This document shows, in pieces, positions 8,710 through 26,113 of a DNA stretch of 64,000 bases. The position numbers were made by a program, and so were the translations under genes. The number at the start of each line of letters is the position of its first letter. Positions within the stretch are counted from its first letter, which is position 1. The notes below the pieces were generated by a model that was given only the letters and a program-made list of their open reading frames with translations, was not told where the DNA came from and made no database searches. Source of the DNA: an uncultured bacterium. Its GTDB lineage: Bacteria; Patescibacteriota; Minisyncoccia; Phycocordibacterales; CAIZLB01. The stretch spans positions 29,401-93,400 of the forward strand of contig CAIZVZ010000001.1 of NCBI GenBank assembly GCA_903936565.1. The letters are read 5' to 3'.

Positions 8710-9969
8710 TCAACCGCCCGGTTTATTCAGACGGTAAAATTGCTGAGCTGGTACGGAACCAGGTTGGCCGATAATCACGTACGCCATGTCACCCAGCGTT
8801 GAGGTGTAGAGGTATCCGTTGGCTTCCGCCACCAAAATCCTCTTCCCATCACCAGACATGGTCGCTGAGACAAAACGATACTGGTCGAAAGCACCAGAAC
8901 TGAGACACCCCGTTTTCATGGAATCCTCGGATGTGAAAATCCGACTTCTCCAGTCACCCAGGGCAACAATCTTGGTACAAGTCATATCGCTTGAGATGGA
9001 AGCCATTCCTTGTGCACCAGACGCTGAGGTTTGACTCCAGTTTGTTCCGCTGTCCATCGACATCCAGATCTCACCCCAGTGGGTAATCGAGATCAGTTTA
9101 CTTCCATCCGACGAGGATACTGCCGAAAGCCAGACATAGCTATTGCTGTAGTCCGTACCGTTAACAACTCCGTCGAGTGGATTTGGGATTCGAATCCATG
9201 TAGCACCACCGTCAGTTGATCGATACCTAGAACCACCGTTCACGAGCGCAAGCAACTTGAGCCCAGTTGAATCGGACGCGACTGCCGTCCAATTACGCAT
9301 ACCTGCGGCGGTACATGCTATCCACGACACACCTGAGTCCGTCGAGGTATAAATGTAGCCGTTTTGAACCGCTCCCGCCAGCCTCGTACCATCTGAGGAT
9401 GATGCGATTGCCACCCAGTTACGAGTAGTGTCAGATGTCCTTTGCATCCAAGTGAGACCAGCGTCAGTAGAGGTGTAAATATATCCGTACTTCACACCTG
9501 CCGCCAACTTGTTGCCACCTGCGCTTGTCGTAATACAACTCCATGCTCTTACTCCAGAAGCGACCGATTCCATCCACGTAGCACCGCTATCAGCGGATGT
9601 GCGGATGTTGGCATTAGTCGCGATAGCAACCAGCCTGGAGCCATCAAATGAAGAAGCTGTACCGACCCATGGTCGCTTAGCATCTGTCAGATGTGGAGTC
9701 AGAGCGGGGCCAGAAGCCGTACTAACATGATGCCAACCAGCCAAGTCAGCCGACTTTTCAACATCATAGTAACCGAGGGGTTTGGAAACCCATCTCAGCA
9801 CTGCGGGTGTCGTATCTGTTGCTGGCGAATAGGCCACCCCTTGCTGACCGATAACTTGCCCATGAGACAGTGAGCTTGCGCCCATCAACCCAAGTAGCGT
9901 CATCAAAGTCGCCAAGGCAAACCTTGCGAATCTCGTTGCAGGTCTTCCCTGCTTTGTATTTGTTTTCAT
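8710..9969 (-). CDS. secreted BNR/Asp-box repeat beta-propeller protein (sialidase/Ycf48-like fold)
   Basis: Signal peptide; at least five Asp-box motifs SxDxGxTW (YTSTDAGLTW, YTSTDSGVSW, RSTDGGATW, TSADSGATW, SMDSGTNW); GC-rich; TGA stop. Confidence 0.7.
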   Translation of the reverse strand: MKTNTKQGRPATRFARFALATLMTLLGLMGASSLSHGQVIGQQGVAYSPATDTTPAVLRWVSKPLGYYDVEKSADLAGWHHVSTASGPALTPHLTDAKRPWVGTASSFDGSRLVAIATNANIRTSADSGATWMESVASGVRAWSCITTSAGGNKLAAGVKYGYIYTSTDAGLTWMQRTSDTTRNWVAIASSSDGTRLAGAVQNGYIYTSTDSGVSWIACTAAGMRNWTAVASDSTGLKLLALVNGGSRYRSTDGGATWIRIPNPLDGVVNGTDYSNSYVWLSAVSSSDGSKLISITHWGEIWMSMDSGTNWSQTSASGAQGMASISSDMTCTKIVALGDWRSRIFTSEDSMKTGCLSSGAFDQYRFVSATMSGDGKRILVAEANGYLYTSTLGDMAYVIIGQPGSVPAQQFYRLNKPGG

Positions 9970-19646: not shown

Positions 19647-21452
19647 TTAACATTCAGAACTCTGAGTGTACTGCCGGCAAAGTTCCCGAAACTCGGGGCA
19701 ATTGGCCATCAATTCATCATACGTTCCGCTTGCAATAATTCTACCATTTGCAAACATACAAACTCGATCGAAGAGTGGAAGAAGGTGAAGTTTGTGAATC
19801 GAGGAAATCATGGTTTTACCCGGAAAGCCCTCGAACATATCTCCATATACCCTTCTCTCAGTTCTCACATCGAGACTACTAGTGGGTTCATCAAAAAGCA
19901 ACATTTCCTTATCCGAGTCCGCGCAAGCAAGAAGCCCACGAGCCAAGGCAAGACGTTGCTTCTCGCCACCACTAAGACTTACCCCTTTCTCATTCATCAT
20001 GGAGTCCAAACCCTTCGGTAATCTCGCAATTACATCGGTAAGCCCGGCCATTTCCACATAACGCATAATTTCAGCGTCAGTGTAATCCGCACCAAGCGTG
20101 ATGTTCTCGCGAATAGTCGCAGCGAAAATCTCTGCCTCTTGCGGGACAAGAGTAATCGCTCTAGCAATTCCATCAAAGCCATGAGAAATTTCCCGTCCAT
20201 CCACCGAAAGATTTAATGACGATGGGTGATAAAGATTACGCATGACCTTGAGGAATGTAGTTTTACCACTACCACTCTCTCCTACTACAGCAATTTTTTC
20301 ACCGCTCCTAATCTCCAGCGACACGTCATCCAAGTGGAGCCTCGACGACTCCCCTACGTCTCCGTAGGAGAATGACAAATTACTAATACTGAGGCTTTGC
20401 CAACCTTTTGGCAATACGTGATTCGAAAAGCTCTCATCACGAAACGCACTGGAAAGCTCTTCGGCGTTTGACACGCTTGCTCGACGCATAACCGTATCGC
20501 TGTACAAGTAATTAAACCTGCTGAAGATGTCACTCATGTTACCTAGATACTTGTACAGCAAAAATACCTCTCCAAACAATGTACCACCTTTTGCGCCGAT
20601 GTGACTTAGAAAATACGCACCAAGGACTATTGCCACCATACTCGAGCAACACATTGAACTGACAAACCATTTGATTTCATTCAGCTGACTATTTCTCCTA
20701 AACAACGCATATGGCGCTTCTGTCTTCTTAACAATCGCATTAAAGACAAGCTTCTCTACACGAAGGACAATGACTGTCACAACATTGGCGATTGCATCGA
20801 CAATACTTGCGGAAATCTTGTTATCGTTTTGATTCAGCTCACGATATTGGACTATCAGTATTCTATCAAAGCGCATTACGATCCAGAACGTGAACACCAT
20901 CATGATGACCACGACAGCCGCCGATGGTGGAAACAGAACAGCAAGCGCGATGAAGCTCCCGAAGAATCGTACAAGCGCATAAATAATTTCGAACGAGTTT
21001 TTCGTAAACTGATACAAGGCTTGAATGCCCTTCTCAATCTTGTCGATAATCCCTCCCGAATGCTGACCAGCATGCCATTCCAGTGGAAGCGTAAAAATAC
21101 CTCGAAGGAGGTGCTTCCTATATGCAAGACGGACCTTGAATCCGTTCCCGGTTTCCATCACCCTTGCAGGGCCGTGCATAAGCCAAAAGAAAGCCATTGC
21201 ACCGACGGTTCCAGTTAACAACAGAAGTAGAGGGCGAATGTTGTCATTCGTTATTCCCTCACTCTGAATGATATTCATAATCTTGGCCCAAATCTGCGGC
21301 ATGACAACAACATCAAAAGTCTCCGCGAGGATAAAGATTATCCAAACGAAAAGAACAATTTTTCTGTTGCCTACCGAATAGTGCCAAGCCTCTTTGAAGA
21401 GGTACGCGAGCGGATTAAGCCCACCTTTTTTAGACTTAGTTTTCGATTTCAT
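19647..21452 (-). CDS. ABC transporter, fused permease/ATP-binding (exporter type)
   Basis: Six N-terminal TM helices; Walker A GESGSGKTT, signature LSGGEKQRLALARGLL, Walker B LLFDEPTSSLD. Confidence 0.88.
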   Translation of the reverse strand: MKSKTKSKKGGLNPLAYLFKEAWHYSVGNRKIVLFVWIIFILAETFDVVVMPQIWAKIMNIIQSEGITNDNIRPLLLLLTGTVGAMAFFWLMHGPARVMETGNGFKVRLAYRKHLLRGIFTLPLEWHAGQHSGGIIDKIEKGIQALYQFTKNSFEIIYALVRFFGSFIALAVLFPPSAAVVVIMMVFTFWIVMRFDRILIVQYRELNQNDNKISASIVDAIANVVTVIVLRVEKLVFNAIVKKTEAPYALFRRNSQLNEIKWFVSSMCCSSMVAIVLGAYFLSHIGAKGGTLFGEVFLLYKYLGNMSDIFSRFNYLYSDTVMRRASVSNAEELSSAFRDESFSNHVLPKGWQSLSISNLSFSYGDVGESSRLHLDDVSLEIRSGEKIAVVGESGSGKTTFLKVMRNLYHPSSLNLSVDGREISHGFDGIARAITLVPQEAEIFAATIRENITLGADYTDAEIMRYVEMAGLTDVIARLPKGLDSMMNEKGVSLSGGEKQRLALARGLLACADSDKEMLLFDEPTSSLDVRTERRVYGDMFEGFPGKTMISSIHKLHLLPLFDRVCMFANGRIIASGTYDELMANCPEFRELCRQYTQSSEC

Positions 21453-22533: not shown

Positions 22534-22575
22534 AAGGCCGCTCCAGCCAGGAGCGGCCTTCCTTGTTATTTATTT
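22534..22575. terminator. bidirectional rho-independent terminator (11-bp stem aaggccgctcc/ggagcggcctt)
   Basis: Perfect 11-bp stem, T-rich on both sides; between convergent 21988..22512(+) and 22590..24899(-). Confidence 0.6.
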
Positions 22576-22589
22576 GTATTTACCGATTG

Positions 22590-24899
22590 TTATAGTGATG
22601 TCTTAACAACAGACATTGTTTTTGGTCCAAAATAACCCGAGGCAGGCGTTATCTTATTTGCCTTTTGATACTTAATTAAAGCAGCTTTTGTTGCTGGTCC
22701 AAATTTAGCACTTTCCTTACCTTTTGATCCAACGCCACTTTTTGCAACAAGAAACTTATTGTTATTTAAAAATTGTTGAAGCATCTTTACATCTTGTCCT
22801 GTCATGCCAAGTTTTAAATCACGTAAGAAAGACGCTTGTGATGATTGTAAATCAGATGATGAACTATATCTACAAAGCGCCGGTGAACTTGATGCAAAAA
22901 ATTCGTAGTTTAATGCTTTTGGATCTTTACATCCGTATATGATACTACCCGAAGAAGACTGGCCAAACGTTTGAGTTGAAACTGCAGGTTGAGCACTAAC
23001 ATTTATTGCAAAGGTTGCTGCAATACTATGTGCTGTTGTGACGTTAGTAAATCCATAAGAAGCAACCGGTCCAACAGAAACACCGTCAATCAATACATCC
23101 ACAGTGTGGTAGTTAGCTGATGGAGTAATGGTATAAACTTGAGAAGCACCATCATCTAGTGACGTTACCCCACTTGGACTAATCGTACCATTTGGTCCAG
23201 CTGATATAGTGATGGTGTGAGCAGTGGGAGAATTATAACGAGAGAGGTAAACATGAGAAACAAAGGCACTATTGTATTGTGGATATGTTACGTAAATATT
23301 ATTAGTTAAGTCCACTGCTATTTGAGGTGAGGAAACTGGATGAGCTACACCGAGGTCAATTGGAGTACCACTAGCAAAAGTATTGGTCCACGCAGACGCA
23401 TCACCATTCCAAATCCTAACATCTGTTCCATCATAACGTGAAAGATATATTTGGGGGTATGGATTAACGTTGGTATATTGCTGGTAAGTTACATAAACCT
23501 TACCATTTGTGTCTATAGCCAATTGAGGTACGGTTGCATCTTTTACTATACCCGTATCTATTGGATCACCATTCGCAAAAGTTGTGGTCCACGTAGATGC
23601 ACCGTTATCCCAAATCCTAACATCAGTACCATTATAACGTGAAAGGTAAATATGATTTTTTGTACCATTTGACTGATAATAAGTTACATAAACTCTACCG
23701 GTTGAATCTACTGCAACTTGGGGTGTGATCGCGCTTTGAGCTATACCTGTATCTATTGGAGTACCATTTGCAAAAGCTGTGGTCCATGATGAAGTGTTAC
23801 CGTCCCAGATTCTAACGTCGGTGCCATCATATCTAGAAAGATACACATGTAGATTAGAGCCATTACTCTGCTGATAAGTTATATAAACCCTACCCGCTCC
23901 GTCAACAGCCAATTGATTAGAATAAGCATCGTTTGCAGTACCGGTGTCTATAGGATCACCGTTAGCAAAAGTCGTGGTCCAAGATGAAGAATTACTATCC
24001 CAAATTCTAACATCAGTACCATCATAACGTGAAAGGTAGATGTGACTTTTAGCGCCATCTGATTGAGAATAAACTAAATAAACTTTGTTGGTTGAATCTA
24101 CAATTAGCTGTGGTTCAGAAGAACTATTAGCTGTACCCGTATCTACCGGAGTACCACTAGCAAAAGTATTGGTCCACGCAGACGCATCACCATTCCAAAT
24201 CCTAACATCTGTTCCATCGTAACGGGAAAGGTAGATATGAGTACTTACACCGTCAAATTGAAAATATGTTAAATAAACTTTATTATTTGAATCAATAGCC
24301 AACTGCGCAGAGCTAGCAGAGCTCGATATACCTGTATCTATTGGAGTACCATTTGCAAAAGTTGTGGTCCATAATGAAGTGTTACCATCCCAAATTCTAA
24401 CGTCTGTGCCATTATATCGGGAAAGATAAATATGGGTCACGAAACTGACTGTCTGTTGATAAATGACATAGACATTGTTATTGGCATCAATTGCCAATTG
24501 AGGTGCATTAGCATTATTTGCTGTGCCAAGGTCAATTGGAGTACCGCTAGCGAAGTTATTTGTCCATGCAGATGCGTCACCATTCCATATTTTAACATCC
24601 GTGCCGTCATGACGAGAAAGGTAGATGTGACTTGCGGAACCATTGGACTGTTGGAAAACAGTATATACCCTACCGTTTGAATCTGTAGCAACCTGAGGTG
24701 TTAATGCATTTTGAGCTATACCAGTATCTACTGGAGTACCGCTAGCCAAGGTATTTGTCCATGCGGATGCGTCACTATTCCAAATCTGCACAGATGAACT
24801 CGCCGCTGCCTTTGATGAGATTCCAAAAAATATAAAAACTGACACTAGTAAAATAATAGTAAATTTCTTATTCAACACCAAGGATGATATTTTAGACAT
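22590..24899 (-). CDS. cell-wall-associated repeat protein: signal peptide, ~10 tandem ~48-aa repeats, InlB-B-repeat-like domain, C-terminal peptidoglycan-binding (PG_binding_1-like) domain
   Basis: Repeat consensus IWNGDASAWTNTFASGTPIDTG....PQLAIDS.NKVYVTYQQS.G...HIYLSRYDGTDVR; TISAGPNGTISP...YTITPSANY; C-terminal GMTGQDVKMLQQFLN...ATKAALIKYQKANKI. Confidence 0.7.
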   Translation of the reverse strand: MSKISSLVLNKKFTIILLVSVFIFFGISSKAAASSSVQIWNSDASAWTNTLASGTPVDTGIAQNALTPQVATDSNGRVYTVFQQSNGSASHIYLSRHDGTDVKIWNGDASAWTNNFASGTPIDLGTANNANAPQLAIDANNNVYVIYQQTVSFVTHIYLSRYNGTDVRIWDGNTSLWTTTFANGTPIDTGISSSASSAQLAIDSNNKVYLTYFQFDGVSTHIYLSRYDGTDVRIWNGDASAWTNTFASGTPVDTGTANSSSEPQLIVDSTNKVYLVYSQSDGAKSHIYLSRYDGTDVRIWDSNSSSWTTTFANGDPIDTGTANDAYSNQLAVDGAGRVYITYQQSNGSNLHVYLSRYDGTDVRIWDGNTSSWTTAFANGTPIDTGIAQSAITPQVAVDSTGRVYVTYYQSNGTKNHIYLSRYNGTDVRIWDNGASTWTTTFANGDPIDTGIVKDATVPQLAIDTNGKVYVTYQQYTNVNPYPQIYLSRYDGTDVRIWNGDASAWTNTFASGTPIDLGVAHPVSSPQIAVDLTNNIYVTYPQYNSAFVSHVYLSRYNSPTAHTITISAGPNGTISPSGVTSLDDGASQVYTITPSANYHTVDVLIDGVSVGPVASYGFTNVTTAHSIAATFAINVSAQPAVSTQTFGQSSSGSIIYGCKDPKALNYEFFASSSPALCRYSSSSDLQSSQASFLRDLKLGMTGQDVKMLQQFLNNNKFLVAKSGVGSKGKESAKFGPATKAALIKYQKANKITPASGYFGPKTMSVVKTSL
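23324..24791. repeat. ~144-bp coding tandem repeats (~10 copies) within 22590..24899
   Basis: Recurrent near-identical DNA blocks (e.g. gcaaaagt(t/c)gtggtcca...tcccaaattctaacatc) matching the 48-aa protein repeat. Confidence 0.6.
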
Positions 24900-24976
24900 T
24901 AGATTAATTATACTGCAATGAACCTATCTCTACTACTATACGACTGTGGACAAGATTCATGCTAAGCTGATTATAA

Positions 24977-26113
24977 TTATTGCACAAAAGGCACTTCTTT
25001 CTGATTCTGTATTACATATTCCGTGAAGAATGGGCCACCTGTAACATCCCCATTCTTATCGAAACCAAATGTTCCGTTAACTCCATTGTAATCTTTAACT
25101 CCATATAGATAGTTTTTAATCTTACCCGAGTCATATCCAACCGCCTTAATTGCATTCATTGTCACATTTGCACGATCAAAGGATAAGCCAAGTAAGGTTG
25201 CATTAACTGGTTTAGATCCAAACTTTTGTTGATATTTAGAAATTAAATCTTCCAAGGCTGGTGAATTTTTAACACCATCACTCAACACTACCCCCTCGAG
25301 ATAAGTGCCACCAACAGCAAATGAATCTGGAGTTCCTAACGAAAAGTTACCATGAATTTTACCAGTAAACCCAGCCTGTCTAAGTTGCTTAACCAAAAGT
25401 GCTCCTGGTTTTCCTGAACTACCTGGACACACATAAACGACATCGGCTCCACCTTCTTTAATCTTCATTACAACATCTCTAAAATCAGTTGTTTTTCCTT
25501 CAAAGTTTTGATCAAAAACAATTTGAACATTATTTGCATTAAAGTTTTCTACCATTATCTTACGCACACCCTGTGCATAATCATTATTCTCTGAAATTAG
25601 GGCTACTTTTTTGAAACCTCCTTTTACGATTACATTCGCATCGAGTTTGGCAACATCTGAATCAGATGGTCCGTTTCTAAATACATAATCTCCAGAGTTT
25701 GCAATAGCCGGATTAGAAGAAAACGAAGAAAATAATATTACTTTATTTTGTTCTGCGATTGGAGCAATAGCTAAAGTTTCGGAACTACAAATACCGCCAA
25801 GAATTAACTTAACCTTATCTACATTAATTAGTTTTGAGGCGGCTGTGAGTGCGTCCTTTCCATTACATTTTCCATCTTCATAAATGACTTGGACTTGCCT
25901 GCCGTTAATACCCCCTTCAGCATTTATTTTATTTACAACTGTTTCTGTTGAGTATTTTTCAGTCTCACCATAAACTGCAGCGTCCCCAGAAAGTGGACCA
26001 ATATACCCTATTTTAATTGGACCCTTATCATTTAAATTATTTTTTCCACCAATTATTATTACTAAAATAATCAAAATTATTACCCCTGCTACAATCCAAA
26101 AATTTTTCTTCAT
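24977..26113 (-). CDS. ABC-type branched-chain amino acid (Leu/Ile/Val) substrate-binding protein family (Peripla_BP_6-like), membrane-anchored
   Basis: N-terminal TM anchor, IKIGYIGPLSGDAAVYGE...INAEGGINGRQV...EDGKCNG pattern typical of LivJ/K-type SBPs. Confidence 0.72.
   Translation of the reverse strand: MKKNFWIVAGVIILIILVIIIGGKNNLNDKGPIKIGYIGPLSGDAAVYGETEKYSTETVVNKINAEGGINGRQVQVIYEDGKCNGKDALTAASKLINVDKVKLILGGICSSETLAIAPIAEQNKVILFSSFSSNPAIANSGDYVFRNGPSDSDVAKLDANVIVKGGFKKVALISENNDYAQGVRKIMVENFNANNVQIVFDQNFEGKTTDFRDVVMKIKEGGADVVYVCPGSSGKPGALLVKQLRQAGFTGKIHGNFSLGTPDSFAVGGTYLEGVVLSDGVKNSPALEDLISKYQQKFGSKPVNATLLGLSFDRANVTMNAIKAVGYDSGKIKNYLYGVKDYNGVNGTFGFDKNGDVTGGPFFTEYVIQNQKEVPFVQ

Follow-up and report, generated by a model that had tools for sequence, protein, structure and literature searches.

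It is poorly understood how the Patescibacteria recognize and hold on to other cells (PMC10936435; PMC11623550). Kuroda et al. (2024) have presented extracellular proteins of the Paceibacteria that carry peptidoglycan-binding and immunoglobulin (Ig)-like domains, are highly expressed and have been proposed for host attachment (PMC10936435). In a separate body of work, Pereira and Lupas (2022) define highly symmetrical beta-propellers at about 60% internal blade identity and document amplification across propeller lineages (PMC9218822). This work concerns a gene that touches on both subjects. It lies on a 64,000-nucleotide stretch of contig CAIZVZ010000001.1, the whole of which we call the window, and it encodes a 769-residue protein made of a leader, eight long repeats, an InlB-B-like domain, a Ser/Thr-rich linker and a C-terminal PG_binding_1 domain. 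The repeats are modeled as a closed eight-bladed beta-propeller that no curated family covers. We lean toward the view that the protein is a wall-tethered binding module, an adhesin or something lectin-like, with a candidate ligand-binding role, and this view draws on the sequence and on a structure model.

The resemblance to the Paceibacteria proteins is one of description, not of sequence comparison. They come from the same bacterial group, are exported and join an Ig-like module to a peptidoglycan-binding domain, as our protein appears to do, but the paper that presents them mentions a propeller zero times. The resemblance to the highly symmetrical propellers can be put in numbers. Internal blade identity averages 59% in our protein and reaches 71-76% in three of its relatives (P0003-P0005), and its blades, like those of the amplified propellers, have no blade-by-blade orthology to most relatives. 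We did not find the family named in PMC9218822, nor anything specific there on sialidase, eight-bladed or Patescibacteria propellers.

The gene was first picked out in an earlier note that read ten near-identical repeats of 48 residues (144 bp) in it, thought them conserved at the nucleotide level and took them for a ten-bladed propeller. The reading frame is as that note had it, since one open reading frame fills exactly this interval on the minus strand. The strong internal repetition has held up as well, and so has the propeller as a predicted fold; the count, the length and the closeness of the repeats have not. In an autocorrelation of the protein, identity rises to 44-49% at lags of 65, 130 and 195 residues and is 9-14% elsewhere, and eight units can be parsed between residues 39 and 560 (23220-24785), seven of them 65 residues long and one of 67. 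The DNA period is 195 nt with a single spacing of 201 nt. The consensus that the note had quoted, IWNGDASAWTNTFASGTPIDTG...PQLAIDS.NKVYVTYQQS.G...HIYLSRYDGTDVR, is a fair picture of this 65-residue unit. Any two units share 45-69% of their residues and 59-75% of their nucleotides (mean 66%), so they are near-identical at neither level. Tandem Repeats Finder with its default settings reports no array between positions 20000 and 28000 of the window, and the period was recovered only through gapless family extension and protein autocorrelation.

The fold was predicted with AlphaFold2 (AF2) on an alignment of 49 homologues. Over residues 37-560 the predicted local distance difference test (pLDDT) is mostly above 90, and each unit is modeled with four long strands, one short strand and a turn. 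The last unit gives three strands only (residues 526-555), and the strand that it lacks is matched in register by the N-terminal VQIWN (residues 37-41). Judging from this strand order, the N-terminal strand would close the ring, and as modeled the repeat region is a closed propeller of eight blades. Eight-bladed propellers are also what the model matches best in the Protein Data Bank (PDB). Across the 49 homologues the same positions are conserved in every blade: I1, W2, D3, W9, T10, G16, P18, I19, D20, A27, P30, A33, D35, V40, Y41, Q46, I57, Y58, L59, S60, R61 and Y62. Among polar residues, which include His, Glu, Asp, Arg and Tyr, there is none whose conservation is confined to one or two blades of these homologues. 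An identical conserved set in all eight blades argues against a single asymmetric active site, which would normally leave a trace in particular blades.

The question of which known propellers stand closest has an answer of several parts. By local blade shape the best PDB matches in Foldseek are propellers of the sialidase clan, with E around 1e-10 for the leading entries: GH145 BT3686 (PDB 5mul) and its relatives, CylK, NanA (GH33), the PL24/PL25 ulvan lyases and the PL42 rhamnose-glucuronate lyase, along with endosialidases and the fucose lectin AAL. However, the template-modeling (TM) scores, normalized to the query, are just 0.2-0.34 and identities are 9-14%. Like the clan, our protein has a conserved motif at the turn between strands 3 and 4, where an Asp-box would be placed, and here it reads Ser...Asp-Gly...Trp. 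The canonical Asp-box, SxDxGxTW, was not found in the protein in strict or relaxed form; seven of the eight repeats have instead a longer motif, S[RK]x[DN]G-TDV[RK]-IW (S-R-Y-D-G-T-D-V-R-I-W). Clan members have six or seven blades, whereas ours has eight, each of 65 residues and lengthened by a 25-residue excursion between strands D and A. The mutual identity of the blades, the lack of conserved residues specific to any one blade and the low TM scores set it apart further. Because the motif sits at the Asp-box position but the canonical form is absent, we would place the propeller near the sialidase/Asp-box clan and not in it.

The other comparisons are more distant. The eight-bladed scaffolds, which include the WD40 proteins Notchless and Fbw7, BamB and the designed Ika8 and v31Bagel8, show 6-18% identity and no common motifs, and their blades are about 20 residues shorter; they are intracellular or periplasmic, whereas our protein would be exported and tethered to the wall. 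Among the propeller lectins (AAL, PLL and tachylectin types), AAL and PLL are only weak fold matches, and the Trp, Asp, Gln and His/Arg conserved in each blade are compatible with a repeated sugar pocket. The NCBIfam model NF053835, 'PDIAV motif-containing lipoprotein', scores up to 58 bits across the repeats of several homologues against a cut-off of 90, and the motif in its name is similar to P-Q-[LIV]-A-[IV]-D, a strand motif of ours; our protein itself, however, does not match it at E <= 1, and it has a signal peptide with no evident lipobox. The BFVD viral structures returned generic propellers only (TM <= 0.36) and no specific phage link. No Pfam or NCBIfam model covers the propeller, for which we found only sub-threshold or repeat-driven matches to SBBP, BNR_4 and S_locus, and the NCBIfam scan of the protein gave no meaningful match. 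The difficulty the note had met in assigning the propeller to a family is therefore real.

Outside the propeller the protein has the marks of export and of attachment. Residues 1-33 begin with a KK n-region, continue into the sole hydrophobic stretch of the protein (a 19-residue Kyte-Doolittle maximum of 2.16 at residues 15-33, modeled by AF2 as a helix at 11-28) and end in an AAA-S cleavage-like site, SKAAA before SSS. This looks like a Sec signal peptide, with the cleavage site read by eye, and leaders of similar kind are present in all homologues. The PG_binding_1 assignment of the note holds at E 5.3e-10, with 39.8 bits against a Pfam gathering cut-off of 23 and profile positions 1-55 of 57 aligned. 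A sequence search of the PDB with the whole protein gave one marginal match only, the endolysin 7rum, and this lies on the same tail, as do weak matches to PHROG families annotated as endolysin.

The InlB-B-like domain that the note had also proposed is a more delicate case. On its own the segment reaches only 11.2 bits (E 0.37) against PF18998, below the 23.6-bit threshold, although the alignment extends over profile positions 1-71 of 73. Copies of this 73-residue module, 53-67% identical to ours, are present in more than 60 other multidomain proteins, and when 21 of these relatives were aligned with ours, 17 of the 22 segments matched PF18998, the best at E 5.8e-9. We believe the assignment survives by way of these relatives, as a divergent member. 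A profile of the module found no match in the PDB, and AF2 confidence is low here as it is over the C-terminal 210 residues of the full-length model. The linker that follows contains the only two cysteines of the protein, in a motif (GCKDPxAxNYExF..S.P.LC) that is kept at the same place in three relatives (P0002, P0014 and P0121) and has no family assignment. The composition of the whole protein is skewed: Asp (50) far outnumbers Glu (3), and Ser and Thr together make up 23% of its 769 residues.

The relatives show what else such a propeller is joined to. A HMMER scan with the propeller region over 1.84 billion cluster representatives returned 1,267 at E <= 1e-3, 378 at <= 1e-10 and 55 at <= 1e-30, which puts the family at about 1,270 members counted in 50%-identity clusters. 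A scan of the genomes of the Genome Taxonomy Database (GTDB) found distant relatives only, at 25-28% identity. P0014 and P0121 have the same tail of Cys motif and PG_binding_1 as our protein. In P0003, P0004, P0008, P0009 and P0011 the propeller is fused to CFI-box-CTERM (NF041770, about 98 bits), a sorting signal of which our literature search found no mention. P0139 has a T9SS sorting domain, P0202 has Big_5, and precomputed Pfam listings give FN3 on some relatives. In a group of about 595 residues (the P0018 group) the C-terminal tails are short, rich in Gly and marked by a Cys-Phe motif, perhaps an abbreviated version of CFI-box-CTERM. These varied C-terminal modules, two of them recognized secretion or sorting signals, support the idea that the propeller is an exported or surface-attached module.

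Four features, namely leader, wall tether, stalk and the variety of modules on the relatives, lead us to a wall-tethered binding platform as the reading we somewhat prefer. The protein would be exported by the Sec route from a Patescibacteria cell and held non-covalently on that cell's own peptidoglycan by its PG_binding_1 domain. The InlB-B-like domain and the linker would form a stalk, and the closed propeller would be presented outward as a platform for a ligand from a host cell or from the environment, most probably a glycan. Four elements of this picture are inferred: that the signal peptide is cleaved, how the protein is oriented on the wall, that it binds and does not catalyze, and what kind of ligand it binds. 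Two segments vary between blades and between homologues. One is the B-to-C loop and the other comprises the final nine residues of the long D-to-A excursion; both would lie on the top face, where they make a candidate contact surface. A role in binding a host or a substrate is plausible for a surface protein of this kind. Exported proteins that join a wall tether to a large binding platform are reasonable candidates for attachment.

Several points weigh against this preference. The leader could stay uncleaved and serve as a membrane anchor. The assignment of residues to faces follows standard propeller topology and not coordinates. PG_binding_1 is most often joined to wall hydrolases. It is important to realize that enzymes of the sialidase clan (GH145, PL24/25/42 and GH33) head the Foldseek list, and that BNR_4 (PF15892) passes its cut-off of 27.3 with 33 bits on a fragment of three repeats, even though it is outside the ten families listed at E <= 1 for the whole protein. 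Taken together the Foldseek matches and the BNR_4 score keep an enzymatic role in consideration.

Such a role would make the protein a carbohydrate-active enzyme associated with the wall. It would belong to the sialidase/Asp-box clan as a distant member with eight blades and might act as a glycoside hydrolase or a polysaccharide lyase. PG_binding_1 would then place the enzyme on the cell's own wall, or on the wall or capsule of a host that the enzyme degrades. The domain commonly accompanies hydrolases (PMC10936435), the PHROG matches of the tail are to families annotated as endolysin, and one homologue bears the NCBI name 'sialidase family protein'. Against this stand the low TM scores and identities, the longer hairpin motif in place of the Asp-box and the conservation of the same residues in every blade. 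We find this explanation unlikely, while giving it more credit than those that follow.

It has also to be considered that the protein binds other proteins and not glycans, as an envelope scaffold with a role like that of BamB or the WD40 proteins in assembling the wall, an S-layer or pili. The missing catalytic signature suits a scaffold, and very large surface proteins with TIG, FN3 and PKD domains adjoin the gene. Against it, no partner gene is conserved beside family members: the gene neighborhoods of four relatives have nothing in common with each other or with the window, and the contig of the nearest relative, P0002, is not syntenic with it. The family is also patchy in related genomes, and its nearest relative is 61% identical while DnaB of the window has relatives at least 90% identical. 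We regard the scaffold as quite doubtful. The lack of a conserved operon partner is what would be expected of a stand-alone binding protein.

We now turn to the number of the blades and their history, on which the note had made its strongest claim, that copy number is likely to vary by slippage or recombination. Exactly eight repeats are present in 52 of 60 repeat-bearing homologues. P0121, a protein of 1447 residues from the search of representatives, has 16, and these form two tandem blocks of eight followed by its Cys-motif and PG_binding_1 tail. A closed ring would be expected to keep its blade number fixed in this way. An identical protein (P0001), annotated 'hypothetical protein', is present in assemblies of NCBI, JGI and ENA on at least 13-21 contigs; the 21 recorded are of differing size classes and reach 225 kb, and the index lists it in 36 blocks on contigs from below 10 kb to above 200 kb, the independence of all these assemblies not being demonstrable. 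Since the eight-repeat gene recurs on so many differing contigs, a collapse or expansion in a single assembly, which the note had raised as a danger to its own reading, is unlikely. Among 5.8 billion clusters there is none whose identity falls between 61% and 100%. At strain level, copy number was compared among identical copies only.

The blades themselves tell two different stories. In the group of about 595 residues, blade i is closest to blade i of the other proteins, at 60-80% against about 40%; by these sequence comparisons the propeller of that subfamily is old and differentiated. In the clade of our protein (P0002-P0009 compared) the blades are as alike within a protein (0.59-0.76) as between proteins (0.57-0.60), or more so. 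Our protein compared with P0003-P0005 gives 58-60% on the diagonal and 57-59% off it. P0002 alone shows a weak positional orthology with ours (67% against 59%). Such figures are what one would see if a single blade had been amplified repeatedly or if the blades of each gene had evolved in concert. Intragenic recombination has probably acted, homogenizing the sequence while the count stayed at eight, and homogenization of this kind does not make the copy number variable.

Where units have the same amino acid, their codons coincide in 53% of cases; the codon usage of the gene would predict 43%. Synonymous sites are thus mostly near randomized. Only two local patches stand out from the 66% background, an exact match of 53 nt between repeats 4 (within 24039-24200) and 8 (within 23253-23414), ATTTGGAATGGTGATGCGTCTGCGTGGACCAATACTTTTGCTAGTGGTACTCC, and one of 35 nt between repeats 3 and 6, and these may be small conversion patches. 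The near-identical DNA repeats and the differences in copy number among relatives that mark phase-variable repeat loci are thus both missing here. A contingency locus, whose repeat number shifts by slippage or recombination to vary a surface antigen, or else an artifact of assembly, seems to us very improbable: the two direct repeats could support a rare homologous deletion or gene conversion, and the likeness of the blades within each protein speaks for intragenic homogenization or re-amplification in the past, but the units are too diverged, the count of eight is too constant, a closed propeller does not easily tolerate the loss or gain of a blade, and the same product recurs unchanged on many contigs.

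A bolder idea can also be put forward. The propeller could be the prototype of a still unnamed family of surface lectins, multivalent and used for host attachment, although we hold this to be improbable. Each blade would form an equivalent glycan pocket from Trp2, Asp3, Trp9, Asp20, Gln46 and His/Arg54, and repeated homogenization or re-amplification of the blades would keep the eight sites alike. Tethered to the wall of an episymbiotic Patescibacteria cell, the protein would grip a polymer on the surface of the host cell. If this were true, it would be a candidate host-recognition factor in a group whose attachment mechanisms are largely unknown. Apart from such ideas, a moderately large, uncurated propeller family with a fixed count of eight, unusually long blades and signs of homogenization is a tidy case for studying how propellers evolve, and it could be considered for an entry of its own in Pfam. 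In other respects the gene is ordinary, a hypothetical surface protein without repeat instability.

Table 1. Features of the propeller gene and of its surroundings, in positions of the window
Feature	Position	Strand	Basis or remark
Complete coding sequence, 769 aa plus stop	22590..24899	-	Open reading frame list; stop codon 22590-22592
N-terminal signal peptide or signal anchor, aa 1-33, MSKISSLVLNKKFTIILLVSVFIFFGISSKAAA followed by SSS	24801..24899	-	Hydrophobicity
Eight-bladed beta-propeller (modeled), aa 37-560	23220..24791	-	8 sequence repeats of 65 aa, the seventh of 67 aa
Repeat 1	24591-24785	-	
Repeat 2	24396-24590	-	
Repeat 3	24201-24395	-	
Repeat 4	24006-24200	-	
Repeat 5	23811-24005	-	
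Repeat 6	23616-23810	-	
Repeat 7	23415-23615	-	
Repeat 8	23220-23414	-	
Divergent InlB B-repeat-like (Flg_new_2-type) beta domain, aa 561-633	23001..23219	-	Transitive homology
Ser/Thr-rich linker, aa 634-699	22803..23000	-	Composition, Cys positions
Two-cysteine motif GCKDPKALNYEFFASSSPALC, aa 656-676, inside the linker	22872-22934	-	Only two Cys of the protein
PG_binding_1 peptidoglycan-binding domain, aa 700-763	22611..22802	-	Pfam PF01471
Bidirectional terminator-like hairpin, 11-bp stem with 8 G-C pairs	22534..22560		Terminator scan and the sequence itself
Open reading frame, 174 aa	21988-22512	+	Converges on the propeller gene; common terminator hairpin; no Pfam match
Peripla_BP_6 solute-binding protein gene	24977-26113	-	Upstream of the propeller gene, same strand
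Open reading frame, 173 aa	26283-26804	-	Flanks the locus; no Pfam match
Open reading frame, 1462 aa	28135-32523	-	TIG domain, otherwise almost no recognizable domains
Open reading frame, 1060 aa	34025-37207	-	Weak FN3 and PKD matches

The setting of the gene is ordinary chromosomal DNA of 38% G+C, and the window encodes DnaB, UvrC, Ddl, AsnB, CdaA, RmuC, a P-type ATPase, tRNA-Ala and an M23 peptidase. Every named relative of DnaB, 65-71% identical, is labeled Parcubacteria, Paceibacterota, Taylorbacteria or 'Patescibacteria group', and because of them we assign the source to the Patescibacteria (the Candidate Phyla Radiation, CPR). A D-Ala-D-Ala ligase (Ddl) and an M23 peptidase in the same window mean that the organism makes peptidoglycan. 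Patescibacteria cells are not known to have an outer membrane, so a protein bound to their peptidoglycan would be exposed.

Immediately upstream lies the gene for the solute-binding protein, which has a good promoter-like site before it (26151-26122). Between its end and the start of the propeller gene is a spacer of 77-78 nt (24900-24976) that contains TATAAT at 24912-24907, 7 nt ahead of the ATG, and in which no Shine-Dalgarno sequence is evident. The propeller transcript could be leaderless or have a very short leader, or it could arise by read-through from the solute-binding-protein gene; co-transcription of the two genes is possible from their arrangement. The solute-binding protein stands alone here, while its relatives, at 59-67% identity (loci L007 and L008), occur in multi-copy arrays inside Liv-type ABC transporter operons. 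These homologues were considered as positional orthologues and rejected, given that they sit in the transporter operons with no propeller nearby. The exact solute-binding protein of the window was absent among the matches listed in its own homology search.

A few kilobases away, the reading frames of 1462 and 1060 residues probably encode further surface proteins. Elsewhere in the window, a frame of 419 residues on the minus strand (8710-9969) has a match to Sortilin-Vps10, itself an Asp-box propeller, that falls slightly below threshold (32.2 bits against a cut-off of 33), and it may be a second propeller protein of the window.

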